A stretch of 64,000 bases of DNA from a virus (IMGVR_UViG_3300042514_001345), one strand, 5' to 3'. Shown: positions 10,373 to 61,843, numbered from the stretch's first letter. Program-made: numbers and translations. The notes: generated by a model from the letters alone, not told the origin.

Positions 10373-10430
10373 TATTCTAAATTTTACACTAAAATAAATA
10401 TTTTGTTCAAAAAAAACAAAATATTATCCA

Positions 10431-10438
10431 TATAAATA
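10431..10438 (-). promoter_or_regulatory. TATTTATA upstream motif (minus strand)
   Basis: TATAAATA on the plus strand, 58 nt upstream of the Pnk-like gene start at 10372. Confidence 0.3.
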
Positions 10439-10440
10439 TA

Positions 10441-10465
10441 AAATGGGGGCAAAAAACCCCCATAT
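10441..10465 (-). terminator. terminator hairpin downstream of the SPFH gene
   Basis: Stem GGGGG / CCCCC with loop CAAAAAA. On the minus strand it is followed by a U-rich tract. Confidence 0.45.
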
Positions 10466-10488
10466 TATGAAATATTAATATTTTAACA

Positions 10489-16262: not shown

Positions 16263-16270
16263 TATTTATA
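16263..16270 (+). promoter_or_regulatory. TATTTATA upstream motif (candidate late-promoter element)
   Basis: Exact 8-mer, 34 nt upstream of the ATG at 16305. Confidence 0.35.
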
Positions 16271-20088: not shown

Positions 20089-20096
20089 TATTTATA
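20089..20096 (+). promoter_or_regulatory. TATTTATA upstream motif
   Basis: 3 nt upstream of the terminase ATG and just after the terminator. Confidence 0.4.
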
Positions 20097-21913: not shown

Positions 21914-21921
21914 TATTTATA
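21914..21921 (+). promoter_or_regulatory. TATTTATA upstream motif
   Basis: 5 nt upstream of the portal ATG, in the context gTATTTATAtag. Confidence 0.4.
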
Positions 21922-25222: not shown

Positions 25223-25230
25223 TATTTATA
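25223..25230 (+). promoter_or_regulatory. TATTTATA upstream motif
   Basis: 17 nt upstream of the gp21-like protease ATG. Confidence 0.4.
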
Positions 25231-25984: not shown

Positions 25985-25992
25985 TATTTATA
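25985..25992 (+). promoter_or_regulatory. TATTTATA upstream motif
   Basis: 20 nt upstream of the scaffold ATG, in the context cTATTTATAtag. Confidence 0.4.
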
Positions 25993-38260: not shown

Positions 38261-39046
38261 TTAATCTACATAGTTTATTTCGCGCTTATTTTTATAAAAA
38301 AATTCTTTTTTAGCCGTTTCTAACCAGAATTTAACTTCTTTTTCCGTCAATTTTTCTTTTTCATCATTTTTATAATTCCAAAATAAAGAATCTTCTCTTA
38401 AATTAACGTGTCTGTAACCAATTTTAGGAACACTCATAACATTTACACCGTTATTTGTTAAACGTAACAATAATTCATATGAAAAAGTCAGTTTAATATT
38501 ACTTTTAAATGATCCGTTATTTTTAATAACACTAGTTCTATATAAACCACCGCTCGTTTGATAGTTTTGATATTCTAATAAAACCTCATTATCTAAAACG
38601 CCTTGCTTATCTGAAAATCCGTAAGCCCAGACAGATTCGTTTGTGAAACTAGCAAATTCACCTTCCGGATCAATGTCTTTAACGATGGTTAAAAAAACAT
38701 CAACATCTGGATATTCGGTTACGTATTCATTCATACTTTTTAACCAAGGTTTTTGATACTCGTCGTCAACTTCTAAAATTGAAAACCATTCAGTATCACA
38801 AGCATCGATGCCCAAGTTTATTTGACTACAAAAATCGGTTTCTTTTGATGTGTTATAAATAACCTCAACCTCTAATTTTTGACCAAAATTGAATTCTTTA
38901 ATTTTTTTATTTAATTTTTCAGGACAAATAATTTTAACTTTAACATCGTTATGAAATTCTTTGACAGAATCTAATGCGTTTTCTAGCATCTTATCATAAT
39001 CATTGTCTAACTTATGTACTGGAACTAAAATTGTTATATTTTTCAT
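38261..39046 (-). CDS. family-2-like glycosyltransferase (GT-A)
   Basis: N-terminal ITILVPVHKLDNDYDKMLENALDSV fits the GT2 start pattern (iiPvyN....l...l.Sv). A DxD-like ILEVDDEY is present. Confidence 0.45.
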   Translation of the reverse strand: MKNITILVPVHKLDNDYDKMLENALDSVKEFHNDVKVKIICPEKLNKKIKEFNFGQKLEVEVIYNTSKETDFCSQINLGIDACDTEWFSILEVDDEYQKPWLKSMNEYVTEYPDVDVFLTIVKDIDPEGEFASFTNESVWAYGFSDKQGVLDNEVLLEYQNYQTSGGLYRTSVIKNNGSFKSNIKLTFSYELLLRLTNNGVNVMSVPKIGYRHVNLREDSLFWNYKNDEKEKLTEKEVKFWLETAKKEFFYKNKREINYVD

Positions 39047-40110
39047 ATTTCTTCTTCTACTTTTAATTTATCTAGTGCAGTAGTAATTGATTCTTTTCTT
39101 TTATTTCTTAATGAATTAAAGATTGAAACAGTATTTTGTGCAGTTATTTCTTTATTATATGGGGTTAAGGTTTCTTTCATTTTTTCTTTAACATCGTCTC
39201 CGATTTCAACACCCTCTAACCAAGCTAAACAATATGTACCCAATAAATCGACTACTTTATTGATGTCATATGTCCACATACCATTCTCACCTAACCAATC
39301 AGGTTCCGTTGTTGGTATTTTACCAATTACCGGTACACCACATTTCATAGATTCTAAAGGGAAAGTTCCAAACGTACTTTCATCATCAATCCAAACAGAT
39401 ACAAAACATTCTTTTAACGATTCAGCAAATTCATCATAGGACATTTGAACCATGTCTCTAAATGTTACCCATCTTAATTGTGGGTATTTCAAGTAGAATT
39501 CTGAAATTAGTTTTCTGTGTTGTAATCTATCTCTACTTGAAATGGCGATATATGGTTTTAATGGTTTTTTACTTTCACTAAAAATATCATCAATGATTGG
39601 TGGTAATAGGTAAACCAAAGTTTCTGGAAAATATTTTTTAATATATTCCTTAGACGCTGCGGTGGTTGCGATTGCTTTATCAAAACCAAATTCAGCCCAC
39701 TTACTACCAATAGATAATGTTTCAAAAATATATTCTTTTTGCTGTACTAACATTACCTTAATACAACGAATATTAGATAATTGCTGTAAAACATTAGAAT
39801 AATATTCTGGCACAACTATCATGTCGTCAATTTTAATTTCAATTTTATCATCTTTAATTGAAACGACTTCAAGATCGTTATATCTATCACCTAACCAACT
39901 ACTGACACTTGGATAGTTTTTATCTTCAACTAGTATTTTACTATTGAATCCGTTTTGTTTTGTAATTAGCGCTAAATCGTATATATGTTTTACTGCGGCT
40001 CTTGCGTTGCCTTTTGTGTCGTAACATAAAAAATAAACAACACTTTGGTTGTTATCTAATCTACTTAAAGCATCTTCTAATTTTTCGATGTTTTTTAATT
40101 TTTCACTCAT
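39043..40110 (-). CDS. group-1 (GT-B, GT4-like) glycosyltransferase
   Basis: ESMKCGVPVIGKIPTTEPDWLGENGMW resembles the GT4 C-terminal EAMAcG.PVi...gG..E motif. Confidence 0.5.
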   Translation of the reverse strand: MSEKLKNIEKLEDALSRLDNNQSVVYFLCYDTKGNARAAVKHIYDLALITKQNGFNSKILVEDKNYPSVSSWLGDRYNDLEVVSIKDDKIEIKIDDMIVVPEYYSNVLQQLSNIRCIKVMLVQQKEYIFETLSIGSKWAEFGFDKAIATTAASKEYIKKYFPETLVYLLPPIIDDIFSESKKPLKPYIAISSRDRLQHRKLISEFYLKYPQLRWVTFRDMVQMSYDEFAESLKECFVSVWIDDESTFGTFPLESMKCGVPVIGKIPTTEPDWLGENGMWTYDINKVVDLLGTYCLAWLEGVEIGDDVKEKMKETLTPYNKEITAQNTVSIFNSLRNKRKESITTALDKLKVEEEI

Positions 40111-42667: not shown

Positions 42668-43885
42668 TTATTTAATTGATTTAAGAAATTGAACTCTATC
42701 TTGGCAAACTTTTTTTAACGAATATTTGTCTTTAACGGTTTCATATAAACGATTACCTAAATCTTCAATCATATTTGGATTGTCAATTAATCGTTTCATA
42801 TGTTGCGCCCATTGTTTGTGGTTTTTGTTCTGTGAAACTAATAACGCATTACCGTCAGTAAATTCCCCATTACTTACCGCTGATTTTAAATCAAGCGAAT
42901 ATGGATTAGTTTCACTAGCAATTACCGCTTTTTTATGGAATCCCGCCTCAATAACTTTGAGTTGTGATTTACACCCATTAAAAAATGAATCTACCAATGG
43001 AGTCAAAGATACATCAAAATTGTTGTAATTAGATGCGTAAGTGCTAATATTTTTTGTCCATCTTCTTCTATATGGTTGATTTACATCATCGTAATCACCT
43101 TCCTTATATTGTAAAAGATACTTTATGTATTCTGGATCTAAAGTTTTATATTTATCTGTGAAAATATCTTCATATACTTTCCAAACAGTTTCTTCTGGTT
43201 TAATGTCCCTAACCCTTTTTTGACCAGTATTCTTATCAATTTCAGTTACACTTCCTCTAGTATCAAAACCACACAGAACAAATTGAACCTTACCCTTATG
43301 TGAATTATGAATACTTGATATATTACCACGCATCAATTCTAAATCATGCAAATGTGAGGACCCACCAAGCCATCCAAAACGGATTAATTCAGATTTAGTT
43401 GATTTTGGTTGGAATTGAGGTTCTGTATCATCAACGGCGTTTGGAAAAATGTGGATGTTTTTTAATCCTAACCTTTCTTTAATCACCTGAGCAAATAAAG
43501 GAGTTGTTGTTGTAACATAATCCGCCGCTTTTAATAATTGAACTTTTTTTTCTGGTAATTTAGTTGAAACAATTTGATGATATGCTGGATGTCTTTGGTC
43601 TACTAACCAATAGTCATCAATATCGACAATGACCTTAATACCTTTAGCTTTTAACCAAGCGATTCTTTCTAAATTTCTTTCGTAAGTGCTTTTGTGGATA
43701 AAACTATGTAAAACAACTATATCATAGTTCTCAAATATTTTATCATCATCTGCTACGTCCATGACAATATCGACATGGAATTCTTCGCCGTAATTGGAAC
43801 CAATGAATCTGTACGGGTCTAGTACCCTGTACTTACCTACGCCATGGGCGTCTGAAGGAATTGCTAATACTCTTATTTTAGACAT
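42668..43885 (-). CDS. putative GT-B-fold glycosyltransferase
   Basis: 405 aa. The N-terminal MSKIRVLAIPSDAHGVGKYRVLDPYRFI is faintly reminiscent of the T4 alpha-glucosyltransferase N-terminus MRICIFMARGLEGCGVTKFSLEQRDWFI. The similarity is weak. Confidence 0.3.
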   Translation of the reverse strand: MSKIRVLAIPSDAHGVGKYRVLDPYRFIGSNYGEEFHVDIVMDVADDDKIFENYDIVVLHSFIHKSTYERNLERIAWLKAKGIKVIVDIDDYWLVDQRHPAYHQIVSTKLPEKKVQLLKAADYVTTTTPLFAQVIKERLGLKNIHIFPNAVDDTEPQFQPKSTKSELIRFGWLGGSSHLHDLELMRGNISSIHNSHKGKVQFVLCGFDTRGSVTEIDKNTGQKRVRDIKPEETVWKVYEDIFTDKYKTLDPEYIKYLLQYKEGDYDDVNQPYRRRWTKNISTYASNYNNFDVSLTPLVDSFFNGCKSQLKVIEAGFHKKAVIASETNPYSLDLKSAVSNGEFTDGNALLVSQNKNHKQWAQHMKRLIDNPNMIEDLGNRLYETVKDKYSLKKVCQDRVQFLKSIK

Positions 43886-44538: not shown

Positions 44539-45648
44539 TTAAAGATACTCCATTTTATTAAATAGTTTTTTTATTCTACCTAAAACACCTTCATTTAAAT
44601 CCTCATTATCTTCTGGGGCTTCTTCTGGTTTATTGGTTTTAGGTATTTCTGGTAGTTTTGGTTTTTCTTGTGTTTCTGGCTGCTCTGGCTCGGGTTCTAC
44701 CTTTTTACTTTGTACTGGTTTTTTAGGTGGTTTACCAATAGCCGTTGGTAATATGATTTCTGGCTCAGGTTTTTTATTTGCATTCTTTCTCATAAACTCT
44801 TTAGCTTTTGCGGTTTCTTTATCAACAATTGCTTTTGATATGTCATCTACTAAAGAATCGATACTTTTTGTAACTTCTTTTTTCTTATCGGTTAAATCTT
44901 TTAAAATATTAAGGTATTTTTCTTCATCTGGAGTACCGGTACCTTTCACTTTTTTATATTCATTATTATTTAACACCATATCGTTTTGGATATTTGCCAG
45001 ATCATCCTGAAGTGTTCCTATTTCTTTGTCGAAATTTCTTGTTTGTTTTGTAACTGTAACGGTTTTTGTTGGTTTCTTTTCTTTATCAACCTTTTGTAAC
45101 GGCTCTATGTTAATTTTAGTTTTAGGTCTATTCAATTTTTGACTAAAATCAGTTGTAACATAAGTAATACTCATTAAAGCGTCATCACCACCGCCATTAT
45201 AGAGTGGTCTAGGTTCATCAAAAAACTCGTTAGTTTGAATTTGAACAGATGACATTCTAGCTAACATAAACGTTCTCCATCTATGATTTGGTGTGCCGTC
45301 CGGATTTTTAAATCCTTTTTTAGAAACTGATGGAGGATTGATATATGCACGTAAAACTAGATTACCTTTTTTATTTAACCCTAAAGCAACGGCTTCAGCT
45401 TTTACGCGATATCCAGCTTTAACACTATTTTTTTTAGGTTTTCTAGGTCCACTATAATAAAATGTGATTGGATTTCTTGTGATAATAGCTTTTACAATCG
45501 GTCTAGTTTTAGTCGTTTTAAGAATTGAACTATTTTCATAACCCTGTTTAACTTGTTCTTCTATTATCTCTGAAAAATATTCTTCAAGTGTCATATTAAA
45601 AATCTGGGTATCTTTTAGTTTCTCCGTAAGCATTTCTAGCGATACCAC
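44539..45648 (-). CDS. hypothetical protein with a Lys/Pro/Glu-rich C-terminus
   Basis: 369-aa ORF. Confidence 0.4.
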   Translation of the reverse strand: MVSLEMLTEKLKDTQIFNMTLEEYFSEIIEEQVKQGYENSSILKTTKTRPIVKAIITRNPITFYYSGPRKPKKNSVKAGYRVKAEAVALGLNKKGNLVLRAYINPPSVSKKGFKNPDGTPNHRWRTFMLARMSSVQIQTNEFFDEPRPLYNGGGDDALMSITYVTTDFSQKLNRPKTKINIEPLQKVDKEKKPTKTVTVTKQTRNFDKEIGTLQDDLANIQNDMVLNNNEYKKVKGTGTPDEEKYLNILKDLTDKKKEVTKSIDSLVDDISKAIVDKETAKAKEFMRKNANKKPEPEIILPTAIGKPPKKPVQSKKVEPEPEQPETQEKPKLPEIPKTNKPEEAPEDNEDLNEGVLGRIKKLFNKMEYL

Positions 45649-46249
45649 TAGTTCTTTCCTTGATATCTGTTAATGAACCTACACGACCATTATTTTCACC
45701 CTTACCAAATTCATCACCATCAGAAATAGCATCGGGATTTGTACTATTATATTGGTTTTGATTACCGTATCGATTTTTACCGGTTAACGTTTTTCTTTCG
45801 TTGATATCGGTTGACGAACCAACTTTACCATCAAACTCACCTTTACCTTTTTCATCACCATCAGATAACGCATTTCTGTTTACTGTGCTATAAAATCGAT
45901 TTTCATTATAACCATTTTTAGCTAATAGTTTTTCTCTTTCATTGATATCTGTTAAAGTACCGACACTACCATTGCTACCAATTTGACCTTTACCTTTTTC
46001 ATCACCATCAGATAAAGCATTAATGTTTCCGGAATTATACGAGTTATTTTCATTATATGAGTTTTTCCCCACTAATTGTTTTCTTTCTATAATGTCTTTT
46101 GAACTACCGATTTCATTTTTACCTTTTTCGTCACCATCTGAAACAGCATTTGGATGTTCCCTGTTGTATGCACCATTTTGATCATAAGGGTTTCTAGCTA
46201 AATGTTCTTTTCTTTGTTGTTCGGCAATAATTTCTAATTGTGTCGCCAT
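45596..46249 (-). CDS. repeat protein with four 46-aa repeats centred on SDGDEKGKG
   Basis: Four tandem repeats of the form NALSDGDEKGKG....DINER..L.GKN.Y.EN..Y. Confidence 0.45.
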   Translation of the reverse strand: MATQLEIIAEQQRKEHLARNPYDQNGAYNREHPNAVSDGDEKGKNEIGSSKDIIERKQLVGKNSYNENNSYNSGNINALSDGDEKGKGQIGSNGSVGTLTDINEREKLLAKNGYNENRFYSTVNRNALSDGDEKGKGEFDGKVGSSTDINERKTLTGKNRYGNQNQYNSTNPDAISDGDEFGKGENNGRVGSLTDIKERTSGIARNAYGETKRYPDF

Positions 46250-47490: not shown

Positions 47491-47498
47491 TATTTATA
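47491..47498 (+). promoter_or_regulatory. TATTTATA upstream motif
   Basis: 5 nt upstream of the ATG at 47504, the first fiber-module gene. Confidence 0.4.
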
Positions 47499-47503: not shown

Positions 47504-48127
47504 ATGAATAGTCAGAATATTTTAAAGTTTTATGGTTCCAGATTGGATATTAAGTTGGATAGTTCAGAGTTTTACGACTATGAGATATCTAAAGTTTCAG
47601 GTGATTATAACACAGATGTCCTAGATTTAGGTTCCCCAATTACATATACTGGGTTAACGATTGATGAAAGTTTAGCATTTTTTAGTTGTTCTAGAATCAC
47701 AATAACGTTAAGTGAATATAATAATACTGTAAATGACCCCAGCTACATATATTCTGGGATATCATTTACTTTGGACTATGATAATTTTGTAAATAATTTT
47801 GGTTCACCATATGAACACATAATTTTAAATAACCATATATACACGTACACAGGTATTACTGGGGAAACCCATTATTTTAGAATTACTCAGTTTAATCAGA
47901 ATTTAAACATTGACGACAACTTATATGATTATTTAACGGATAACCCAACACCTACCCCTACACCAACAATAACGTCAACATCAACACCAACACCAACAAT
48001 AAGTGCAACACCATATCAAACACCAACATTAACCACGACACCAAACCAAACATTAACACCAACACCAACACCAACAACAAATACTAATGGATTAAATACG
48101 GTTTTTGTCTCTTATACAATTTTATAA
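47504..48127 (+). CDS. fiber-module protein with a C-terminal Pro/Thr-rich linker
   Basis: C-terminal run of (PT)n and STPTPT. It is the first gene of the plus-strand fiber cluster. Confidence 0.45.
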   Translation: MNSQNILKFYGSRLDIKLDSSEFYDYEISKVSGDYNTDVLDLGSPITYTGLTIDESLAFFSCSRITITLSEYNNTVNDPSYIYSGISFTLDYDNFVNNFGSPYEHIILNNHIYTYTGITGETHYFRITQFNQNLNIDDNLYDYLTDNPTPTPTPTITSTSTPTPTISATPYQTPTLTTTPNQTLTPTPTPTTNTNGLNTVFVSYTIL

Positions 48128-49359
48128 TGATGAATAGTACTATAAACGAAAAAATAAAAGAACTTTTTGAATCAACACCCAAGAACATTAGTGTTGCTTT
48201 TGGTAAAAAAACGATCGCAGGGGAATTAACCGGTGAACTCGCATTTATGTTTATGGTTCCAGAGAAATTACCATTATCTGAAATCCCAGAACATGAAATA
48301 TTACCATCAACTGTCGTTATTGGTGATGACACATATAAAACAGATGTTATTGAAGTTGGTGAAATAAAACTTATTGCTTGTGATTCAAGCACAAATTCTA
48401 GTTGTTATGGTTGGCAATCAACTCCACCGAGTAATCAAAATACAATCAGACCTATAAAAGGTGGTATTCAAATAAGTTCGCACAATAACTCATTAAATTA
48501 CCCTAGTTCTATTACTGTGGGAACATTGGGGTTTATAGCAATAGATACTGAAACATCCGCAATAGTAGGGGTTTCAAACAACCACGTTTTGGTTAAAAAT
48601 GCGTTTTATACTGGTGAAAGAAATATAAATGGCGCAAGTATAGAAAATGAAATAGATGATAATGTGTATCAAAATGGATTTGACCATTCAACTGGTGGAA
48701 CGATTGGTAAAGTTATTAGATACGTTCCTTTAACCAAATCTGGGGTAAATCAAGTTGATGGTGCTTTGTTTGCAATATATTCAAATGTAATATCTAATTC
48801 AGAATCTTTTTTACAACATGGATTATCAATTTCAACATCGATGCCATTTGCATCAACTTCGGAGATAAATAATGCATTAGTTGGTGATTATCCTTTGGCT
48901 AGTTCTGGTAGAAGTACTGGGGCTAAAATGAACAGCCCATGTGGATTGGTCGTTAATTCTTTAGGTGCCATAACATATGTTGGTCCGTTTTATGATAATG
49001 GCGGATATGAAACGCCATTGTTTAATGATTTAATTGCGTTTAGTAGAGAAAATGCCGATTGTAACTATCCTATTTATCCAGGAGATTCTGGTTCAGGTTT
49101 ACTTGCTAATATTGATGGAACTTGGAAAATTATTGGGCTTTGTTTTGCCGGTAGTAACACAATGGGATACGCTTGTAGAATTGATCATGTGGCTTCACAA
49201 TTAGGAATACAATCTTGGGATGGTACATCAAAACCATTTATCGATATTAATTCAATAGATATAAAAGCAGTGCTTGGCACTTCAACAGATAAAACAATTG
49301 ATTGTAGTGGTACAACATATTGGCAAATGGGGTCAGCTAATAATACAAACTTTTGTTAA
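48127..49359 (+). CDS. trypsin-like (S1 family) serine peptidase domain protein
   Basis: YPIYPGDSGSGLL matches the catalytic GDSGGP signature, and NHVLV is a candidate His region. Start overlaps the previous gene's stop (ATGA). Confidence 0.55.
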   Translation: MMNSTINEKIKELFESTPKNISVAFGKKTIAGELTGELAFMFMVPEKLPLSEIPEHEILPSTVVIGDDTYKTDVIEVGEIKLIACDSSTNSSCYGWQSTPPSNQNTIRPIKGGIQISSHNNSLNYPSSITVGTLGFIAIDTETSAIVGVSNNHVLVKNAFYTGERNINGASIENEIDDNVYQNGFDHSTGGTIGKVIRYVPLTKSGVNQVDGALFAIYSNVISNSESFLQHGLSISTSMPFASTSEINNALVGDYPLASSGRSTGAKMNSPCGLVVNSLGAITYVGPFYDNGGYETPLFNDLIAFSRENADCNYPIYPGDSGSGLLANIDGTWKIIGLCFAGSNTMGYACRIDHVASQLGIQSWDGTSKPFIDINSIDIKAVLGTSTDKTIDCSGTTYWQMGSANNTNFC

Positions 49360-49391
49360 TAAGATTGAAAAATAACTAATTATAATATAGA

Positions 49392-51791
49392 ATGCCATAT
49401 AGTTTAGAATTTGAGGGGATTATTTTATCTGGGTTTAGTAAAACCGTAATCGATTGTTCACAAAAACTTGCGGACCCAAATAACTGTTGCCCAATAACTC
49501 CAAAACTTTCAAATAAACCGTGGGCATATAAATTTGATACAGGGGCAGGTAGTGATAATTGTGACCCAATCATTAAAAGAAGAACTGAAAAAGGTTGGAC
49601 ATTAGATTTTATATTTAACAGAGAAAACTTAAGTTGGGTATTTGGCGGGGTATTTTATTATTTGGGTGTTAGAGGGGATAACGACCCAAATAACTATGCT
49701 GATAATAATCTATCATTTCAATTTACCTCAGATAGAAAAATTAAGTGGGTTGCTCATCATTATTCTGGGTATTGTGCAACTGATTTAGGTTATCAAGAAG
49801 TTTTTTACACAGCTTCTGGTTTAACGCCGACAATTTGTACTACTGATGAAACAAAAGATTTTAACGTCACAATTACATTTGATAGATATAAACATTATAC
49901 GGATTGTGACATAGAGAACGATGGGGGTTGGAATGATTTATTACCTGGACCACGTTTAATACCATATACCCCAACTGACACAGGGGTAACGTCTACACAT
50001 ATTTCTACTGGATATTATTTAACAAATTCAACAGGATCAACACTTTCAGGTGAAACTGAAGTTTATGTATATACTGAAGAATTAAATAAAAAATGGGCTA
50101 ACGAAAGACAAAGAAGATTAGGTACGTTAAAAATTTATTTAAATGGTAGACCAATATACAAATTAGAAGATTGGGAAGAAGTTATACCATCAAGTAGAGG
50201 TGTTCAACCATTCATACAATCTTGGGGTGGTGGGACTGGTTTAATGAATAATATACATGCTGGAGTTTGTTGTTTTAACATGAAATCCATAAAATATTAT
50301 GAAGAACCATTGGATTTTGTTCATGTTAGGCATAATTTTTTAACTAGATTGAATGATTATGATTTCTTTATTTGTGGTGGTACTTGTGATGATGATATAA
50401 GTGGTTTTGTTCCGGAACCAACATCTACTAGAACACCGACACCTACACCGACGGTCACTGCTAGTTCAACTAGTACACCTACGGCAACTCCTACCGCGAC
50501 TCTTACGAGTACACCAACACCAACACCTACGGTCACTGCTAGTTCAACTAGTACACCTACACCTACGGCAACTCCTACCGCGACTCTTACGAGTACACCA
50601 ACACCTACACCAGCTTTAATTATACCAGAAAATGATTTCACATATGTGATTATTCCTGGTAATGATTTACTATATGTCATTATTCCAAATAATGATTTTA
50701 CTTATACATTAATACCAACTAACGATTTAACTAGTACAATAATACCTAACAGTGATTTAGAGTATTTGGTTCTACCATTAAACGATATTAATTATACATT
50801 AATACCAAATACCGATTTAACATATACATTAATTCCAAATTCCGATTTAAGTTATTCATTATTACAACCATCACCAACCCCAACAAGTACACCTACACCA
50901 ACACCAACACCTACGGAGACAAGTACACCAACCCCAACTAATACACCAACACCTACGGAGACAAGTACACCAACTGAGACCAGTACACCAACAAGTACAC
51001 CGACACCAACAATGGTTCCATATAACAAAATTGTTGACTTAAACATAAATGATTCAATATCATATTCTGGAAGTGGAACAACGGTTACGGACATTTTGGG
51101 TAACACAAATGCAAGTATAATTGGTTCACCATCATATCAAAATGATGGATGTACTTCGTCAATAGTGTTGAACGGTACCAGTCAATATATTTTAACCAAC
51201 ACCTCAATTAATACACTTTATGATTCTACAGATACATCTATATTTCTTTGGGTTTATTTAACAGATAATGGTGTAATATTGAGTGAACAAGGTAGTGCTG
51301 TTTTAAACATTGGTTGGCACGATTCACAAATTGAAATGGTTAGTGGAACATTAAAGTTTAGTGTTTGGCCATATGGTAGTGAAATAACATCATCAATATC
51401 AACACCTCTTAATAATTGGTACTATATTGGATTTGTACAGAACAATACAACTTTAACCGCATATGTAAATGGACAAAGTGCTGGTTCATCAACAGTTGTT
51501 AGAGAGGCACCGTACCAAAGTAGTAATGGTTTATATTATGCAATAGGTACCGCAGATAGTACGAACTTAGGTGATGGTACATATTCTGCATTGAAATTTG
51601 GTAGATTAGAAATATGGGATGGTGCGATTTCATCTTCAGATGTTTTACAGAACTATAATGATTCAGTAACCACTTGGATTTGTCCTACACCGACCCCAAC
51701 CCCTACACCAACTATAAATCCAAGTTGTGATATCACATACAATATAGTGCCTTTTGATATGACTTGTGACATAACTTATAATATAATATAA
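49392..51791 (+). CDS. fiber/adhesin with Pro/Thr-rich linkers, 8-aa beta-helix-like repeats and a LamG/ConA-like lectin domain
   Basis: Contains three (T/S)PTPT linker blocks, about ten repeats of (I/L)IPxNDxxY(T/V), and a LamG-like segment (NGTSQYIL...IFLWVYL...NNWYYIGFVQNNTTLTAYVNGQS). Confidence 0.6.
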   Translation: MPYSLEFEGIILSGFSKTVIDCSQKLADPNNCCPITPKLSNKPWAYKFDTGAGSDNCDPIIKRRTEKGWTLDFIFNRENLSWVFGGVFYYLGVRGDNDPNNYADNNLSFQFTSDRKIKWVAHHYSGYCATDLGYQEVFYTASGLTPTICTTDETKDFNVTITFDRYKHYTDCDIENDGGWNDLLPGPRLIPYTPTDTGVTSTHISTGYYLTNSTGSTLSGETEVYVYTEELNKKWANERQRRLGTLKIYLNGRPIYKLEDWEEVIPSSRGVQPFIQSWGGGTGLMNNIHAGVCCFNMKSIKYYEEPLDFVHVRHNFLTRLNDYDFFICGGTCDDDISGFVPEPTSTRTPTPTPTVTASSTSTPTATPTATLTSTPTPTPTVTASSTSTPTPTATPTATLTSTPTPTPALIIPENDFTYVIIPGNDLLYVIIPNNDFTYTLIPTNDLTSTIIPNSDLEYLVLPLNDINYTLIPNTDLTYTLIPNSDLSYSLLQPSPTPTSTPTPTPTPTETSTPTPTNTPTPTETSTPTETSTPTSTPTPTMVPYNKIVDLNINDSISYSGSGTTVTDILGNTNASIIGSPSYQNDGCTSSIVLNGTSQYILTNTSINTLYDSTDTSIFLWVYLTDNGVILSEQGSAVLNIGWHDSQIEMVSGTLKFSVWPYGSEITSSISTPLNNWYYIGFVQNNTTLTAYVNGQSAGSSTVVREAPYQSSNGLYYAIGTADSTNLGDGTYSALKFGRLEIWDGAISSSDVLQNYNDSVTTWICPTPTPTPTPTINPSCDITYNIVPFDMTCDITYNII
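50440..50610 (+). repeat. tandem duplication of an approximately 80-bp unit encoding a Pro/Thr/Ser/Ala-rich linker
   Basis: acggtcactgctagttcaactagtacacctacggcaactcctaccgcgactcttacgagtacaccaaca occurs twice in tandem. The second copy carries a 6-bp insertion. Confidence 0.7.
50617..50865 (+). repeat. 24-bp periodic coding repeat, about 10 copies
   Basis: Encodes (I/L)IPxNDxxY(T/V) octapeptide repeats inside the fiber gene. Confidence 0.7.
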
Positions 51792-51805
51792 AATAAAGAT
51801 ATAAA

Positions 51806-52894
51806 ATGACAACAGTTCAAATATTAACAACAAACTATAGTGGTCAAACCGCCACAATCACATTTTCCCCGTGTAGTGGAGGAACTATAAATTTAGGTTC
51901 ACAAGTCATTCCTTACAATTATATAAGTGATAATTACTTAGGTGAATATTCGCTATATTTTGCGGATTTTAATCAAACCTGCACATTTAATGTTCCGTGT
52001 CCAACAGAAACTCCAACACCTACACCAACGGAAACTCCAACACCAACACCAACACCTACATCAACAGAAACTCCTACACCAACAACAACTCCAACCAATA
52101 CAGAAACCCCAACTAATACACCAACTCCAACTTCAACTGATTCGAGTTCAATAACTACATACACAATTTCAGGATGTACTAATCTAAATGTTTTAGTTGT
52201 CGATTTAGGACCAGGACTTATAGTTCCTGGAGATGTAAACTATTACACATTCACAGGAGCAACACCAAGTGGATGTTATTCAGTCATTGGTAAGATAAAT
52301 GCTCCGATAGACGATGCGTTTACCGCATCATTTGGAACTGGTGGATGTAATGATTGTGAGAGTACTTATATAACTCCAACCCCAACTCCTACGAGTACAC
52401 CTACTCCAACATCAACAAATACCCCAACTCCTACGAGTACACCTACTCCAACACCTACATCAGGTCTTGTGGTAACAATTTTAGAGGTTGGTTCTGACGT
52501 TATAATGTCAGGTTCCGGTTCTCTTAACCTAACAGGATTAATTGAAGGTTCAGTACAAACAGCCGGAGGTATTAACGGTACGTTGGGTTATTGGGTAATT
52601 GGTCAATCTAATCTATTTTTTGCTAGGAAATTTTTTGGAAATAATCTAAATGTTTACCCTAATAGTTTCGGTTCAGGATATACAGCACCAACATCATACT
52701 CGGGACAAACATTTGGTATTCAGGATGGGTCACTAGGTAAAGATATAATTTTACCGATAGGTTATACTTCAGGTAGTCCATTAAGTGGAACTGCAACGTT
52801 TGCAAATAAAACAATATCAGGTATGGGACTAACACCTGGTACTTATTTATATGATTGGGGAAGTGATTCGATAACATTACAAATCGGTTCTTAA
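51806..52894 (+). CDS. fiber-module protein with Pro/Thr-rich linkers and a shared N-terminal domain
   Basis: The N-terminal 60 aa (TTNYSGQTATITFSPCSGGTINLGSQVIPYNYIS...YSLYFADF) are homologous to the N-terminus of the 52965..55067 ORF. Confidence 0.5.
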   Translation: MTTVQILTTNYSGQTATITFSPCSGGTINLGSQVIPYNYISDNYLGEYSLYFADFNQTCTFNVPCPTETPTPTPTETPTPTPTPTSTETPTPTTTPTNTETPTNTPTPTSTDSSSITTYTISGCTNLNVLVVDLGPGLIVPGDVNYYTFTGATPSGCYSVIGKINAPIDDAFTASFGTGGCNDCESTYITPTPTPTSTPTPTSTNTPTPTSTPTPTPTSGLVVTILEVGSDVIMSGSGSLNLTGLIEGSVQTAGGINGTLGYWVIGQSNLFFARKFFGNNLNVYPNSFGSGYTAPTSYSGQTFGIQDGSLGKDIILPIGYTSGSPLSGTATFANKTISGMGLTPGTYLYDWGSDSITLQIGS

Positions 52895-52936
52895 AAATAA
52901 AAAGTAACAAATAATAAAAGATACAACAGAATAAAG

Positions 52937-52944
52937 TATTTATA
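52937..52944 (+). promoter_or_regulatory. TATTTATA upstream motif
   Basis: 20 nt upstream of the ATG at 52965. Confidence 0.4.
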
Positions 52945-52964
52945 ATAGACAAAAATAACAAACT

Positions 52965-55067
52965 ATGGCAGTAGGAGCAAGAATAACAAGTACACACCTG
53001 AGTGGTAAAACGGCAACAGTGACGTTTGTACCATATACAGGGGCAACATCGGGTACAACTCAAAACCTTGGAACTAAGGTAATCCCTTTCAATAACATCA
53101 CCACACACCCGTATGGTGTTTATAATTTATACTTTGCTGAATATGATTACACATACACGTTAACCATACCACAACCAGATGCAAGTGTTCAATCGTTTGT
53201 TTATCAAAATAGAATGGTTGGTTCTGACAACTACGGTGCTGCGTTTTTAAATTTTGATGTTTTAACCGCAGAAATTATTGACTTAGGTGTTGATACTAAT
53301 GTATGGAATAATCAGAATATATATGTGTTAGATAATTCAGGTTATATGCACTATTTCACAGGTGTTGACGATGGTGATGATAGATTAGTGATATTCACAA
53401 ATGCCATTCACGAAGAAATTGGAAGATATAGTGGTACAACTAATGGTTATAGTGGTGACGATTTAGATGGTAAGTGGGTTACATTTGAAGATGAAGATAA
53501 TGGTGTGTTGACTTACTCAGATGGTGTGTCAGTATACACATACACTTGGAATCCAGATATATATAGTATCGATATTGAGTGGAATTATGATGCAACCACG
53601 TCCGATGGTACAATGATTATCGAAAAATGGGAAGTTGAACCTTTAAGTGGGTGGACATACAATGGACCGGGTACATCACACATAGTTAATCCAACTGACG
53701 GTACAACAACTTTATTTAAAACTTGGACAGATGGAACATACATTAGACATAAAATGACAAATTCATCTGATTTTATTGCTGTTTTAACTGAAACTCAAGG
53801 TTCCTCAAACGTGTACACTAATTTTGAAATATATAACACAAGTGGAACCATTTTAGAGACGGTTTCATTAACTGGTGCCACATATAGCAATTATAATGAC
53901 CAATTTCACGGAACAAACAAATATACCATAATACTCTATGATAATGATAATGTAGACACACCATATAAAATAATAAGTTATAATGGTAACACATCAAACT
54001 TAATTGAAACATCACACGCTAGAGGTACAGGATATACAGAAAACAATATAGATGGAGATTCTGGTTTATATCCAGATAGTGATGGAAATGATGGTGGTGT
54101 TGTAATAACTTTTTATGACACTGATAATTGGAATAATTTTGGTTCAGATGTTACATACTGTGACATTATGTATATGTTCAATAATCAAACATCATTTAGT
54201 ACATATACATTCGCAAACAACGAACCAAAAACAATTAATACTTGGGGTCAATTAAGTGACATTTATAGAGTTCCGTGTGTAAATGGTGATGGTATTGCAT
54301 CTATGTTAACCATTATGTCGGGTAGTACTCGTATAGAAAGTATGAATATTAGTGTATCTGGTGTTACTAATTTGAACTGGAATTCATTGGGTAATAGAAC
54401 GGCTGTACAAATTATGACAAACAGTAATAATAACGTAACTTACAAATTAATTAACGAATTAGGTGTTGTAATTGATGAAATAAACGATTACGGTTTAATA
54501 TCAGCTTATGCATCAAGTATGTATTCTTTTGGTGAAACCGCCTATCTTACAATCAGAACGGATGGTGACCTTGGATTTTATGTATATAGTGGTAGTACTG
54601 GATTTACCTCAACAGATTATTATAATGATTTAAGTTCAACAAATCAATATTCTTCAGGTACAGATAAGTACAATGGTGCAATGGTTTTATATAACACCGA
54701 CCAATTAGATTTTAGAGTGTTAACATCAACTGGAATAACTAATGAGTTTAGTTTCCCTGAGTATAATGATTTTGATATTTCAGTTGGTGAGAGCAAGTTT
54801 ATGTTTGTTTATAATGAAACTAACGGTGGTGTAACTAAAATAAGATTGTATAATTTTTCTGGAACACTATTAAACAGTGAAACAACAACTTGGACTAATG
54901 GTTGGGATGATACATATGGTGTTAAAGATAGATTTGTTGTTATGAACTATAATGGGGATGACACGGTTGAAGTTTATTTAGTTAGTGAAAATACTATTAC
55001 ATCAGTAACAACTCAAGATTATAGTAGTGAACAATCTACGAATGATTGGGTTTATCAAAATGACTAA
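52965..55067 (+). CDS. fiber/receptor-binding-like protein (700 aa) with a shared N-terminal domain
   Basis: The N-terminus (TSTHLSGKTATVTFVPYTGATSGTTQNLGTKVIPFNNIT...YNLYFAEY) is paralogous to that of 51806..52894. The rest is beta-rich and rich in Thr, Asn and Gly. Confidence 0.5.
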   Translation: MAVGARITSTHLSGKTATVTFVPYTGATSGTTQNLGTKVIPFNNITTHPYGVYNLYFAEYDYTYTLTIPQPDASVQSFVYQNRMVGSDNYGAAFLNFDVLTAEIIDLGVDTNVWNNQNIYVLDNSGYMHYFTGVDDGDDRLVIFTNAIHEEIGRYSGTTNGYSGDDLDGKWVTFEDEDNGVLTYSDGVSVYTYTWNPDIYSIDIEWNYDATTSDGTMIIEKWEVEPLSGWTYNGPGTSHIVNPTDGTTTLFKTWTDGTYIRHKMTNSSDFIAVLTETQGSSNVYTNFEIYNTSGTILETVSLTGATYSNYNDQFHGTNKYTIILYDNDNVDTPYKIISYNGNTSNLIETSHARGTGYTENNIDGDSGLYPDSDGNDGGVVITFYDTDNWNNFGSDVTYCDIMYMFNNQTSFSTYTFANNEPKTINTWGQLSDIYRVPCVNGDGIASMLTIMSGSTRIESMNISVSGVTNLNWNSLGNRTAVQIMTNSNNNVTYKLINELGVVIDEINDYGLISAYASSMYSFGETAYLTIRTDGDLGFYVYSGSTGFTSTDYYNDLSSTNQYSSGTDKYNGAMVLYNTDQLDFRVLTSTGITNEFSFPEYNDFDISVGESKFMFVYNETNGGVTKIRLYNFSGTLLNSETTTWTNGWDDTYGVKDRFVVMNYNGDDTVEVYLVSENTITSVTTQDYSSEQSTNDWVYQND

Positions 55068-55086: not shown

Positions 55087-55329
55087 ATGAAAATATTAGA
55101 TATTGATGTTAAAGTCATCAAAGACAAACAAAAAATTAAAAGTTTTCAAAAAACTTTTAACACTAATGAACCATTAACGGTTGAACACATTAAAGGTGTT
55201 ATTAAAAATGAAATGGGATTTCCATTTGAAATAGTAAAAGAAGAATTTTACTGTAAGTCAAATGAATTAAAAAATGAAGATAACGCACCATTTAAATCAG
55301 GTAACGAATTTATTTTAACAATTAAGTAA
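55087..55329 (+). CDS. small hypothetical protein
   Basis: 80-aa ORF. Confidence 0.3.
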   Translation: MKILDIDVKVIKDKQKIKSFQKTFNTNEPLTVEHIKGVIKNEMGFPFEIVKEEFYCKSNELKNEDNAPFKSGNEFILTIK

Positions 55330-55697
55330 TGGAATTTTTTATCAGACAAGGGGCAACAGACCCAATCCTTAAAATGAGATTGATTGATGACGGTAAAAAC
55401 GACAAGTCGTCCTTTAATGATCTATTGGAGAATTCTGACATAACATTTGAAATGTATGATGTTAAAACCGGTAATCCAGTTATTTTAAACGCAAATTGTT
55501 ATTTAACAACTAGAGACAAAAAATATAACCAAACAACCGATGAGTACTATATAACATATAGATTTACAACTCAACAAACAGATATTATTGGTAAGTATGA
55601 AGCTATTATATCAGTTCAATTTTTAGATACAAACTCAAGCCCGACAAACAAATTAATTTTACCAATTAGAGAAAAACTATACATTAACATTATTTAA
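55329..55697 (+). CDS. hypothetical protein
   Basis: 122-aa ORF with an ATGA-type overlap. Confidence 0.35.
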   Translation: MEFFIRQGATDPILKMRLIDDGKNDKSSFNDLLENSDITFEMYDVKTGNPVILNANCYLTTRDKKYNQTTDEYYITYRFTTQQTDIIGKYEAIISVQFLDTNSSPTNKLILPIREKLYINII

Positions 55698-58597
55698 ATG
55701 TTTGTGGTGTGATAAGCATAATCATGCCCATTTGTTTCAATTATCTCCTCATCATCATTATTCTTAACACTTTCTGCTTGAAATGATACAACTTTTCTAT
55801 TGTGTTCAACCCAGTTTTGGTCCACTAGTTGTAAGCTGTCCTCAACATACATAAAGAAAGGGTCTCTATTTATTTTATTCCAAAATAAAACTTCGCTATC
55901 TGATAGTGTCATTACTTCATCGTAACTATCTTGTCCGCCAGTTTTTAATGGAAATCCAGATGTTAATTCACATTGTAGTTTTGTAAAATATTGGCGATCC
56001 TTAGGGTCTTCAATTAAAATCGAGTCACGAATCTCAGGTTTAAACACCACTAACAATGGTTCAATCCTTTTGTTAAAGTTATTAATGTATCTAGCAACAT
56101 TATAATCACCAGTCATATTAGGATTATCCATTAAATCTTTTTCACTAATTCTATAGCAATTAATTTGAATGTAATCAGTTGGCATCGGTTTACCAAAAGC
56201 AAATTCATAATCCTCTTGTTGTTTTTTTGTTGCTTTTGTTATTTTTTGAACATCACCATCTGATTTTTTTACACCATTGTTTATGTAAAATATTGTTTCA
56301 CCCAAACCAGCAGGATAATTTTCTTTTAAAATTAATTCCATATGCGCTTGTCTAGCCATGGAACCACCAGATTTTGTTATCTTTTTAATATGTTTTCTAT
56401 AATCCTCAACACTTTGTTTTACACGAGATTTATTTGCAATCTTAGCTAAAGGTATTTTATTGTCAAACAACAATTCAAGTGTTTCATAATAATATTCTAA
56501 AAAACTATGCCCATCACCATTTAATAAGTAAACCAAACCAGTATCTAAAAATTCAACAACATATGTTTGTAATTTTTTTGATTTAATTGTATTCCCAGTA
56601 AGTTTTATTTTTTCTTTACCTTTCTTGATAAGTTTAATGATATAATTCTTTCTAGAAATATTAATACATGCAGGTGCGATATAATCAATATCTAAACTCA
56701 TTTCACCTCTCATAAAAATATCATTGAACTCAGCAGTATCCGCTTCAATTCCTTTGTATTCATTATCTAAATCAACCATCTCATTTAGACCGCGTCCAAT
56801 ATATGTATGTTCATCAATATCTACAGGTGTCTCAAAGTTAACACCATCGGTATCCATTACTAGTGGTTTGTATCCTTTCTTTTCAAAAAACATAATCATC
56901 ATACGAAGGCATTGACGCCCAGTACAAGTAATTGTTTCACCCATATTCATATCACCCCAGGGGAAAACTTGGGGCGCAGATAATGAACCAAAATATGCAT
57001 TAATAAAAATTTTAATCGGCAATTGTTTACGATCATACATTTCCGATTCGATTGGATTTGTATTTTTTAATTCGCCTGCTAATCTTTTATATTTTATACG
57101 AATATTTCTAAAATATTTTAACATTGATTTTTGTACCCCCATAACATCACATTCGGGGAATACATCATAAACCAATTGAATTGATGGATATAGGGATGCG
57201 TAGTCAAATTTAACAATATTCTTAGAGTAACCAACGTTTAACAATCGAGACAATCCACCAGTAATAGCTCTTTTACTATCGCGCGCGGGGATTGATAAAT
57301 TGTTTTCATATGACCAAGCCAACATTATAATTTTCCATAATGTTGCAGTACCCATTGTAGATATTCTTTCATATGTTGTAGGAACAACCTTGGAAAGTAA
57401 AAAAGATGCTTGGCTAAATGAGTCATCAACAACCATAGTTTCATACAAGTCATCGTCAAGATATTGTTCAACCACTCTTCGACCAGTCCATATTTCAAAT
57501 TTACCTGGATATTTTTCTAAAAGACCATCCGTACCTTTGTCACCAATTTTTTTAAATCCGCCGGTTTTTGGGTTAACATAATACGATTCGTTTTCTAAAT
57601 AAATTTTAGAAATAAATGCACCGTCAACATAAACACGATTTTCTTTTTCTTTCTCCAAATACGTGGTGATATATTTCAAACTCCAAGATTTGATTTCCGA
57701 ATTTATAGCTTGTGCCCTTCTGACTCCGTGAGCGATATCAATAACACTAAAACCCCATAACATAAATTGGTTATAAGGTTCAATCTCATTAGCCAACTTC
57801 AACATCCCCTCTTTGATTTTTATTCCTTGCTTTTCATTGAAAATTTTTGTGTGCTCTTCAATATTAATTCCTAATATTTCCGCACGTTTTAATATAAATG
57901 GAAAGTCAAAAGATGCTGAGTTATAACCTCCAATAATTGTCGGTTTAATTTCGCCAATTATTCTGAAAAAATCCTCAATAGATTTCTTTTCACCGTCATC
58001 ACCAAACGCATCTAATGTTTTAGTGTATCCTCGATTATCTTTAATTCCAATAAGAATTATTTTACATTTTTCAGGTTCTAAACCTGTTGTCTCAATGTCA
58101 AATACAAGTCGATGAACATCATTATAATCTTCAATACCCTTGAACAATCTTTTCTTTTTTTGAATTAAGAATTGTTCAACTGGTGTTAATATTGTAAAAG
58201 ATGATTTGTATTGTTCATCCCAAGGATTAATTCCACCTTCACGAAAAAACGCCATTAAGTTGGTATACGTTTTTAAACTTTTAACCAAATAGTTCAAACC
58301 ATCTTCTAACCTTTCGTTACCATGTGAATCTAATTTTTCAATTATAATCCCATGCTGACGCATTTTTGCTTTTTGTAATGATTTATTACCTTGATAAAAG
58401 TTGAAACCACTTAAATCACCCACCCAAAGAAATGGTGTGAGTGTGTCTGAAAGAATCATTTTACCCTTTTCAGGGTGCTGAATGATTTTAAAAATTGTGT
58501 TTGTTTTGTAATCGTATTCTAACCCAACAATATATTCTTCTGGGTCCGAACCGTTTAAGAAACTTTCGATTACTTCTTGTGATATTACCTCTGGCAT
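55694..58597 (-). CDS. family B DNA polymerase (T4 gp43-like) with 3-prime to 5-prime exonuclease
   Basis: Exo I motif FDIETTGL. Polymerase motif A DYASLYPSI, motif B KIFINAYFGSL and motif C VMDTDGV. Confidence 0.9.
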   Translation of the reverse strand: MPEVISQEVIESFLNGSDPEEYIVGLEYDYKTNTIFKIIQHPEKGKMILSDTLTPFLWVGDLSGFNFYQGNKSLQKAKMRQHGIIIEKLDSHGNERLEDGLNYLVKSLKTYTNLMAFFREGGINPWDEQYKSSFTILTPVEQFLIQKKKRLFKGIEDYNDVHRLVFDIETTGLEPEKCKIILIGIKDNRGYTKTLDAFGDDGEKKSIEDFFRIIGEIKPTIIGGYNSASFDFPFILKRAEILGINIEEHTKIFNEKQGIKIKEGMLKLANEIEPYNQFMLWGFSVIDIAHGVRRAQAINSEIKSWSLKYITTYLEKEKENRVYVDGAFISKIYLENESYYVNPKTGGFKKIGDKGTDGLLEKYPGKFEIWTGRRVVEQYLDDDLYETMVVDDSFSQASFLLSKVVPTTYERISTMGTATLWKIIMLAWSYENNLSIPARDSKRAITGGLSRLLNVGYSKNIVKFDYASLYPSIQLVYDVFPECDVMGVQKSMLKYFRNIRIKYKRLAGELKNTNPIESEMYDRKQLPIKIFINAYFGSLSAPQVFPWGDMNMGETITCTGRQCLRMMIMFFEKKGYKPLVMDTDGVNFETPVDIDEHTYIGRGLNEMVDLDNEYKGIEADTAEFNDIFMRGEMSLDIDYIAPACINISRKNYIIKLIKKGKEKIKLTGNTIKSKKLQTYVVEFLDTGLVYLLNGDGHSFLEYYYETLELLFDNKIPLAKIANKSRVKQSVEDYRKHIKKITKSGGSMARQAHMELILKENYPAGLGETIFYINNGVKKSDGDVQKITKATKKQQEDYEFAFGKPMPTDYIQINCYRISEKDLMDNPNMTGDYNVARYINNFNKRIEPLLVVFKPEIRDSILIEDPKDRQYFTKLQCELTSGFPLKTGGQDSYDEVMTLSDSEVLFWNKINRDPFFMYVEDSLQLVDQNWVEHNRKVVSFQAESVKNNDDEEIIETNGHDYAYHTTNI

Positions 58598-59820: not shown

Positions 59821-59828
59821 TATAAATA
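59821..59828 (-). promoter_or_regulatory. TATTTATA upstream motif (minus strand)
   Basis: 14 nt upstream of the gene start at 59806. Confidence 0.35.
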
Positions 59829-61835: not shown

Positions 61836-61843
61836 TATTTATA
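61836..61843 (+). promoter_or_regulatory. TATTTATA upstream motif
   Basis: 4 nt upstream of the ATG at 61848. Confidence 0.4.

Follow-up and report, generated by a model that had tools for sequence, protein, structure and literature searches.

Five consecutive plus-strand open reading frames (ORFs), here named g1-g5, occupy positions 47504-55067 of a 64,000-nucleotide (nt) viral sequence, IMGVR_UViG_3300042514_001345 (the window). They probably form a hypervariable surface-adhesin, or host-recognition, cassette of an uncultured, low-GC, T4-like large phage. We directly observed the domain content of the cassette, its mosaicism and its pattern of insertions and deletions (indels), by comparison with related phage contigs from metagenomes, which are designated by L-numbers (L001, L003, L006, L007 etc.). 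The five ORFs are as follows.

47504-48127, plus strand: g1, 207 amino acids (aa)
48127-49359, plus strand: g2, 410 aa
49392-51791, plus strand: g3, 799 aa
51806-52894, plus strand: g4, 362 aa
52965-55067, plus strand: g5, 700 aa

A six-frame census of the whole window identified nine Pro/Thr (PT) tracts of 17-52 residues. All lie on the plus strand between 47933 and 52465 and are confined to g1, g3 and g4, which contain one, three and two PT linker regions, respectively. The census detected none in g2, g5 or the rest of the 64 kb, and 20 shuffled windows gave zero tracts. A prior, sequence-only reading of this region had credited all five genes with such linkers; the tracts are real, but only three of the five genes carry them. 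The linkers separate the following parts.

g1 aa 1-143, plus strand: g1 N-terminal domain (N-domain)
47933-48091, plus strand: g1 PT linker
48092-48124, plus strand: 11-aa hydrophobic C-terminal peptide of g1, LNTVFVSYTIL
49392-50411, plus strand: g3 N-terminal conserved domain (aa 1-340), ConA-like lectin fold
50412-50612, plus strand: g3 PT linker 1, holding a doubled 77/83-nt unit
50616-50855, plus strand: eight tandem decapeptide repeats of g3, consensus T-[IL]-I-P-N-N-D-L-T-Y
50865-51020, plus strand: g3 PT linker 2, with repeats of 42-nt period
51171-51644, plus strand: g3 Laminin_G_3 / ConA-like lectin domain (aa 594-751)
51669-51791, plus strand: short g3 PT linker 3 and C-terminal tail ...CDITYNIVPFDMTCDITYNII
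51806-52003, plus strand: g4 N-terminal 'anchor' domain (N-anchor) of ~66 aa, paralogous to the g5 N-terminus
51992-52141, plus strand: g4 PT linker 1
52145-52357, plus strand: g4 middle Cys-containing domain (aa ~114-184)
52364-52465, plus strand: g4 PT linker 2, with perfect 33-nt repeats spaced 42 nt
52463-52894, plus strand: g4 C-terminal domain (C-domain; aa 220-362, 143 residues), an exchanged module
52965-55067, plus strand: g5, with the N-anchor domain (aa 1-72), then a conserved all-beta, propeller-like body, and no PT linker

Two ConA-like lectin-fold domains are present in g3, one CBM40-like and one Laminin-G-like, as established by the fold of its N-domain and by a Laminin_G_3 match. 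The predicted structure of the N-domain is a beta-sandwich jelly-roll that superposes on solved lectin modules of the carbohydrate-binding module (CBM) 40-like and ConA-like superfamily, with ~100 residues of the model at low confidence. Sequence identity to these structures is 8-13% (8-11% for CBM40), and single-sequence and family-profile searches against Protein Data Bank (PDB) sequences gave nothing useful for this domain. Residues 594-751 match Pfam PF13385 Laminin_G_3 (E 1.9e-10; 41.6 bits against a gathering cut-off of 27.6), and the homologous Laminin G (LamG) domain of L011 matches phrog_8510, 'virion structural protein' (E 9.5e-8). Both g3 domains may bind carbohydrate. Fold search on predicted structures, a check suggested beforehand, yielded a lectin fold for the g3 N-domain, but for g5 only generic beta-propellers.

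The N-domain of g4 is 46-48% identical to aa 5-69 of g5. A profile built from these two sequences was searched against 1.84 billion cluster representatives and found 386 proteins at E <= 1e-3, 202 of them at E <= 1e-10, ranging from fragments to 1727 aa and matched nearly always at residue 1. PT or Pro/Ser (PS) tracts occur in 106 of the 149 best-scoring proteins, directly after the domain in 100, and some proteins carry up to 11 such tracts in ~1200 aa. Pfam assigned a domain in two of eight long N-anchor proteins scanned, Fib_succ_major in both cases; the beads of these long proteins are mostly unknown domains. A conserved N-terminal piece followed by a tether and variable cargo is the architecture expected of a particle-docking adaptor, which the N-anchor would then be. 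This ~66-aa domain, which opens the proteins of at least 386 clusters, is previously undescribed, and the feature is more general than the sequence-only reading saw, extending to hundreds of related metagenome proteins.

The remainder of g5 is modelled as all-beta (predicted local distance difference test score, pLDDT, 88), and its full-length structural matches are two uncharacterised proteins of uncultured phages. Searches of the PDB with the single sequence and with a profile gave nothing. We recovered 175 full-length homologues of ~700 aa, down to 46% identity; g5 is a conserved core gene and would be the non-swappable member of the cassette. The middle domain of g4 has no family match in Pfam or PHROG.

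Comparison with relatives revealed extensive mosaicism. The flanks are syntenic in phages whose g5 is 53-64% identical: three small minus-strand genes lie upstream, and an 80-aa gene, a 122-aa gene, family B DNA polymerase (PolB), gp13, SNF2 helicase and tail sheath lie downstream. Between the upstream flank and g5, genes are replaced among relatives, so that the cassette proteins differ in number and size.

Window: 207, 410, 799 and 362 aa
L007: 1447 and 168 aa
L009: 391, 351 and 831 aa
L011: 353, 411 and 359 aa
L015: 214, 409, 385 and 581 aa

L015 has no g5, and a 581-aa tail-fibre-like protein occupies its place. The 1447-aa protein of L007 unites elements found in three proteins of the window: the g1 N-domain (63% identical to its aa 8-147), the g3 N-domain (65%), the decapeptide repeats (83% to aa 682-763) and the g4 C-domain (94% to aa 1265-1405), with eight PT tracts and several further domains between them. 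Across the relatives, these domains are found separated, fused or in a different order, and the junctions fall at PT linkers. The flanks and the anchor are thus conserved and the distal modules replaced, a pattern typical of receptor-binding and host-range cassettes. These comparisons bear out the proposals of an adhesin-type module built on PT linkers, here a modular cassette with lectin-fold domains, and of domain shuffling between related phages.

Two rearrangements can be followed more closely. The g4 C-domain with its preceding linker is 89.6% identical in nucleotides to L007, against 71-74% for the backbone, and the high similarity sets in at the PT linker. The fraction of identical codons at conserved residues is 0.79 in this domain, compared with 0.63-0.67, a modest but consistent indication of a more recent exchange. 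The second concerns g1 and g3. In most relatives the N-domains of g1 and g3 are fused; among 470 homologues of the g3 N-domain, most are ~485-aa proteins of this kind without a PT linker, and a relative with 88% identity has a 489-aa protein that is neither split nor extended. In L009 and L011, separate LamG proteins begin with the decapeptide repeats. On these grounds the ancestral g1+g3 N-domain protein was probably split in the lineage of the window, with the protease gene g2 between the halves, and the second half then joined through a PT linker to a repeat-plus-LamG protein. The split with the protease between the halves is common to L015 (58-70% identity). That g1 is a decaying fragment was rejected, since L015 keeps the same split form (N-domain, PT tail and conserved C-terminal peptide, then protease) at 66% identity.

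The tails of the ~485-aa conserved lectin proteins, which end in …IITENDNIVLF and …LLTEDNNNVIIY, resemble the decapeptide repeat (IIPxNDLxY). Such tails were located at 51726-51788 of the window and at the C-termini of P0122, P0123, L009 5182-6357 and L011 6537-7598. The resemblance may point to a strand-docking code that links the products of neighbouring genes and is bypassed in the window by the g3 fusion.

The second gene of the cassette, whose start overlaps the g1 stop codon by 1 nt, matches phrog_20754 'protease' (E 4.5e-16). Its residues His153, Asp211 and Ser321 (the latter in G319-D-S-G-S323, GDSGS) are invariant in 49 homologues down to 47% identity. With the single g2 sequence, a PDB search yielded nothing useful; a profile search of the PDB gave weak matches (E 0.02-0.2) to peptidase C3/3C proteases, the plant trypsin-like NARROW LEAF 1 and chymotrypsin. 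With the triad in the order His-Asp-Ser, g2 is, judged from its sequence, a PA-clan (chymotrypsin-type) serine protease. Some of its 402 homologues carry C-terminal PT linkers and extra domains; in those of 583-673 aa, PT or Ser/Thr linkers are followed by small binding-type domains, and long homologues end in …FTSFVTFGPYNCP after the PT linker. A gene ending in a PT/PS linker and then a short hydrophobic peptide directly precedes the protease in four divergent phages. These genes and peptide cores are listed below.

Window 48092-48124 (g1 C-terminus), L015 6351-6995, L013 7178-7996 and L014 2891-7999: peptide-bearing upstream genes
…GLNTVFVSYTIL, …GLNTIFVSYTTL, …SVYTVFLTFDII and …FRTIYKYLDIQ: C-terminal peptides of the upstream genes
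TVFVSYTIL, TIFVSYTTL, TVFLTFDII and TIYKYLDIQ: cores of these peptides

One of these upstream proteins consists only of the N-anchor domain, a PT tract of ~200 residues and the peptide. The long homologues with linkers and binding-type domains, together with the upstream genes ending in linker and peptide, lead us to infer that the protease belongs to the same system as the PT-linked proteins. The arrangement suggests that the short hydrophobic peptide may dock the protease or be cut by it, serving as a docking strand or a cleavage site. Within IMG/VR, a g2-based search for related loci returned no relative. In L013, the cassette includes a 1149-aa protein (3723-7172) with a papain-like peptidase (phrog_16701, E 1e-46) after a PT linker, and a neighbouring 578-aa protein (9255-10991) holds an uninterrupted 180-residue PT tract.

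The linker DNA is repetitive and varies in length. The ~80-bp unit previously reported as doubled near 50440-50610 was found at 50439-50515 and 50517-50599 (77 and 83 nt), the copies differing by two mismatches and one 6-nt indel. A tandem array of 42-nt period lies at 50901-50993 in g3, and perfect 33-nt repeats lie at 52379-52411 and 52421-52453 in g4. L001, 99.9% identical over 21 kb, is without 84 nt of g3 linker 1 (one copy of the doubled unit), 42 nt of g3 linker 2 and the 42-nt unit of g4 linker 2 (g4 of 348 aa rather than 362). L006 (~99.9% identical) is without 42 nt of g3 linker 2. L003 (98.6% identical) shows 12 gap openings, corresponding to ~5 in-frame events, with 6-nt indels in linker 1 and several indels in linker 2 of g3. 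Over the 16-21 kb compared in these 98.6-99.9% identical genomes, every indel fell within 825 nt of PT-coding DNA and none outside it, and in the most similar genomes every indel was the loss of exactly one repeat unit. The chance of four independent events all hitting this ~4% target at random is ~2e-6. All events were multiples of 6 nt and in frame, leaving ORFs open at 757, 791 or 799 aa and at 348 or 362 aa. The slippage-driven length variation anticipated by the sequence-only reading was borne out in this form, as in-frame variation confined to repeat DNA; repeat-mediated on/off phase variation found no support, the indels being all in frame. Copy-number differences of tandem units were thus seen between near-identical genomes, as represented by short-read metagenome assemblies. 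Contigs break in the linker/repeat region of g3, where L006 ends and L018 starts; these breaks fit either population heterogeneity or assembly difficulty.

Together, these features suggest how the cassette might work. Its products would be 'beads on a string', in which attachment elements, lectin-fold domains, unassigned small domains and sometimes enzymes are joined by PT linkers. The attachment elements would be the ~66-aa N-domain of g4 and g5, the g1 N-domain with the g3 N-domain, and the decapeptide repeats; g5 would be the conserved member using the same N-terminal anchor as g4. The linkers would keep binding modules off the particle on flexible, protease-resistant spacers, and their repetitive ACN-CCN DNA could gain or lose whole repeat units in frame, altering reach. 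They would also supply the shared sequence at which modules split, fuse and exchange between phages. The PT-linked peptide at the g1 C-terminus might tether the g2 protease or be its substrate.

It is possible, though we hold it tentatively, that the linkers are also glycosylated: PT linkers would be O-glycosylated in the cytoplasm by phage glycosyltransferases using a phage nucleotide-sugar pathway, giving a glycan-coated fibre. This supplements the adhesin reading and does not replace it. PT linkers of secreted glycoside hydrolases are classic O-glycosylation sites, and the long Pro/Thr/Ser-rich interdomain tracts typical of O-glycosylated PT-linker proteins are present here as the nine tracts described above. 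The window also holds the phage-encoded sugar-nucleotide enzymes that had been noticed before, in greater number than then listed, with one firm and two weak glycosyltransferase (GT) candidates.

1128-1892: PfkB kinase
1889-2305: cytidylyltransferase-like protein
2280-2651: cupin
6842-7387, minus strand: RmlC-like epimerase
7389-8357, minus strand: short-chain dehydrogenase/reductase (SDR) epimerase/dehydratase
38261-39046: GT2 glycosyltransferase, firm
39043-40110 and 42668-43885: two GT-B-like proteins, weak

The best NCBIfam matches of the SDR protein are GalE, dTDP-glucose dehydratase and ADP-heptose epimerase, all under curated cut-offs. The PfkB kinase and nucleotidyltransferase (1128-3052, plus strand, with the cupin) presumably recall a split bifunctional HldE of the ADP-heptose pathway, and the genes at 1128-3052 and 6842-8357 may together form a nucleotide-(deoxy)heptose pathway. 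Four adjacent ORFs at 3042-6845 (minus strand) have no family match. The 405-aa GT-B-like gene, for which a PDB search gave nothing, is found a few kb before the cassette in each of the five relatives whose flank was recovered (L007, L009, L011, L013 and L015), and in L013 genes matching PF11397 (GlcNAc transferase), GT25 and HtrL_YibB directly follow the cassette. There is also a mycobacteriophage precedent for virion O-glycosylation by phage enzymes: capsid and tail-tube subunits are so modified (Freeman et al. 2023, PMC10527164, as cited in PMC12619734). Against this, phage glycosyltransferases more often modify DNA or host polysaccharide (PMC12619734), none of those in the window is assignable to a protein-glycosylating family, and their genes lie 3.6-45 kb from the cassette. 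PT linkers function as extended spacers without glycans, and our search of the literature turned up no phage fibre with glycosylated PT linkers. Glycosylation of the linkers is a plausible addition suggested by gene content.

The phage itself is of T4 type. The window (GC ~31%) encodes a T4-type terminase, gp20 portal, S77 prohead protease, gp23 capsid protein and gp13-like neck protein, and a PolB with ~26% identity at best to 50,697 phage records. The nearest matches of its capsid protein, at 29-40% identity, are in 'far-T4' phages of Rhodothermus, Flavobacterium and Microcystis. In the metagenome collection, 58 indexed blocks contain the exact g2 protein and 42 the exact g5 protein, and contigs bearing relatives are 150-330 kb long. 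These T4-type genes, the recurrence of g2 and g5, and the size of the relatives' contigs together indicate an abundant, uncultured, large T4-like phage. Bacteroidota as host is our guess, from the capsid relatives and from similar aquatic phages in PMC12619734.

We infer a virion location for g1-g5 from their neighbourhood, upstream motif and relatives. The cassette is near the gp13 and tail sheath genes, as are fibre and whisker genes in T4, and cassette proteins of relatives match PHROGs 'virion structural protein' and 'tail fiber protein' (phrog_9942 in L014). The octamer TATTTATA stands in sense orientation 3-34 nt before 12 start codons, among them those of terminase, portal, prohead protease, gp13-like protein, PhoH, g1 and g5; 12 of its 19 occurrences fall in the short stretches immediately before start codons, which make up 3% of the sequence. 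The T4 late-promoter box, TATAAATA, is not enriched in sense orientation; the enriched form is its reverse complement, TATTTATA. From this placement TATTTATA is probably a late promoter or a leaderless-start signal, and the copy before g1 is a putative late/structural promoter or start signal for a g1-g4 unit. The sites include the following.

47491-47498, plus strand: TATTTATA, 5 nt upstream of the g1 start codon
52937-52944, plus strand: TATTTATA, 20 nt upstream of g5
16263-16270, 20089-20096, 21914-21921, 25223-25230, 25985-25992, 59821-59828 and 61836-61843: further TATTTATA sites

A place on the virion need not mean primary receptor binding. The proteins could instead decorate the head or neck, as Hoc-like or whisker-like capsid or collar appendages mediating loose adherence to particles, mucus or cells. 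In keeping with this, the cassette adjoins the gp13-like neck gene and not recognisable baseplate genes (a PHROG scan of the other large ORFs of the window for baseplate and tail genes matched only gp13-like), its flexible beads-on-a-string build is unlike rigid trimeric tail fibres, and the PHROG matched by the L011 LamG domain is filed under 'head and packaging'. We nevertheless consider this unlikely: no Ig-like or Hoc-type domain was found in g1-g5 (no Ig-family Pfam match), tail-fibre-like proteins such as that of L014 occur in the same cassette of relatives, and strong cassette replacement is typical of host-range determinants.

Linker length polymorphism could also be an artefact, short-read assemblers having collapsed tandem repeats that did not slip in nature. 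The unit-sized deletions are confined to two MEGAHIT (k141) contigs of one ENA project, and five contigs show full lengths: four NCBI assemblies (three full-length, one cut in g5) and one JGI/NCBI contig cut within g3. The breaks of L006 and L018 inside g3 point the same way. We regard this as distinctly improbable as an account of the polymorphism, because the linkers of L003, a diverged haplotype (98.6%), contain several indels of 6-12 nt as well as substitutions, which excludes collapse as the source of its pattern; moreover, the 42-nt arrays are shorter than k = 141, and linker lengths clearly differ in more distant relatives.

Soluble lectins or enzymes that are produced late and either set free by lysis or active within the cell, for instance in digesting or binding the host envelope, would account for the likeness to secreted carbohydrate-active enzymes (CBM, PT linker and catalytic domain) and for the papain-like and chymotrypsin-like proteases on PT linkers in relatives, but are very unlikely given that no signal peptide is apparent at the five N-termini of g1-g5 (inspected by eye), that the shared N-terminal domain sits at residue 1, suited to particle docking, and that the TATTTATA upstream motif is common to structural genes.

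Several observations weigh against the host-recognition cassette that we favour. In Pfam and PHROG, g1-g5 resemble no known tail-fibre, tailspike or Hoc family in sequence or profile, and no fibre family of the T4 gp34-37, gp12 or wac type matches them. No cassette homologue was found in any isolated phage among the 50,697 records: tblastn of g2, the g3 N-domain, the g3 C-terminal region, the g4 C-domain and g5 found no fibre gene, with no match at all for the g3 N-domain, g4 C-domain and g5, only a weak one (E ~1e-3) for the g3 C-terminal region including LamG, and only an archaeal-virus 'putative serine protease' (E 4e-3) for g2. Blastn of the cassette gave only a trivial low-complexity match of 87 nt of PT DNA in Xanthomonas phage XacN1. 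The fold matches of g5 are generic, the N-anchor domain is modelled at low confidence (pLDDT <50), and synonymous similarity in the g4 C-domain is only modestly raised (0.79 vs ~0.65). The indels, seen in short reads, could partly be assembly collapse, contigs often breaking in g3. Finally, TATTTATA also precedes PhoH and therefore marks a regulatory class, not strictly structural genes.

Other features surround the cassette. The two small genes directly after g5 both accompany it in L007, L009 and L011, and L015 retains only the 122-aa gene. Upstream, at a position conserved among relatives, a minus-strand gene encodes a 217-aa protein of ~49-aa repeats with four copies of the motif SDGDEKGKG; Tandem Repeats Finder reports a 147-nt period in 1.9 copies. 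The 967-aa PolB gene is precisely inverted in the window, as in L001, L002 and L005, relative to four related phages in which it lies on the plus strand; both of its neighbours keep their orientation between the window and those four phages, and no convincing inverted repeats were found flanking the inverted gene. A ClpB-type two-ring AAA+ chaperone, an SPFH/Band 7 protein and a T4 Rnl1-type RNA ligase are unusual auxiliary genes that may be of use for placing the lineage.

55087-55329 and 55329-55697, plus strand: 80-aa and 122-aa genes directly after g5
45596-46249, minus strand: 217-aa repeat protein, with the tandem repeat at 45839-46110
55694-58597, minus strand: PolB of the window
L007 12831-15734, L009 12857-15760, L011 12812-15709 and L015 11649-14546, plus strand: PolB of four related phages
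13007-15037, minus strand: ClpB-type chaperone
10489-11409, minus strand: SPFH/Band 7 protein
8724-9932, minus strand: RNA ligase

A bolder extension of the adhesin reading, which we consider speculative and unlikely in full, is that these genes sample a large, undescribed 'construction kit' for phage surface proteins. It would combine a ~66-aa docking domain, PT tethers of up to 180 residues and a pool of lectins, proteases and mostly unknown modules of 80-150 aa, all swapped at the tethers, with the chymotrypsin-type protease leashed to the particle by PT through a short docking peptide at a C-terminus. Cytoplasmic O-glycosylation of the tethers would be carried out by glycosyltransferases of the phage, fed by its nucleotide-sugar pathway, possibly of heptose type, making the particles resemble glycosylated bacterial adhesins or mini-cellulosomes.

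If the cassette products are on the virion, host range in widespread large uncultured aquatic phages would evolve by cut-and-paste at linkers and by changes in tether length, and such phages would carry proteases and lectins on leashes. The N-anchor domain offers a search handle for adhesin genes of metagenomic phages, and searching with it opens many unannotated small domains that may perhaps bind glycans.

Among known systems, PT-box linkers join CBMs and catalytic domains in bacterial and fungal glycoside hydrolases, such as Cellulomonas-type cellulases, and the PT-linker principle is otherwise known from such secreted carbohydrate-active enzymes. As in these, repetitive DNA encodes Pro/Thr linkers that connect enzymes and modules of carbohydrate-binding type, and shuffling occurs at linkers. 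Unlike them, the cassette proteins are phage-encoded, have no signal peptide, possess a dedicated N-terminal domain and lie among structural genes, and the window yielded no glycoside hydrolase domain. T4 gp37/gp38 and other receptor-binding loci combine a conserved N-terminal anchor with exchangeable C-terminal modules. The cassette resembles such host-range loci in its conserved flanks and N-terminal attachment, its replaced distal modules and its neck/tail neighbourhood, but differs from T4 gp34-38, gp12 and wac in lacking sequence or profile similarity, in its flexible PT-linked beads in place of trimeric beta-helical rods, and in including a protease. To virion-decorating CBMs and the CBM40/ConA-like superfamily, the g3 N-domain is related by fold at the low sequence identity given above. 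The usual description of receptor-binding proteins in tailed phages is of rigid trimeric fibres or spikes, and a build of shared N-terminal domain, PT tethers and exchangeable lectin or enzyme beads is unusual for phage fibres.

The mycobacteriophages with virion O-glycosylation likewise encode glycosyltransferases, in their case together with modified virion proteins, whose glycans are attached at the C-termini of capsid and tail-tube subunits and not to PT linkers of fibres. 'Moraphages', large phages of aquatic origin for which Bacteroidota hosts are predicted, encode PolB, chaperones and several core glycosyltransferases (PMC12619734). Like them, the phage of the window appears to belong to the large uncultured aquatic Caudoviricetes, and its relatives lie on 150-330-kb contigs; the sample identifiers of the window relatives are not mentioned in PMC12619734. 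Against this background, the locus is probably a host-recognition or adhesin cassette, in itself a known kind of system, built on PT linkers, with a protease integrated into it and an N-terminal adaptor domain not described before.

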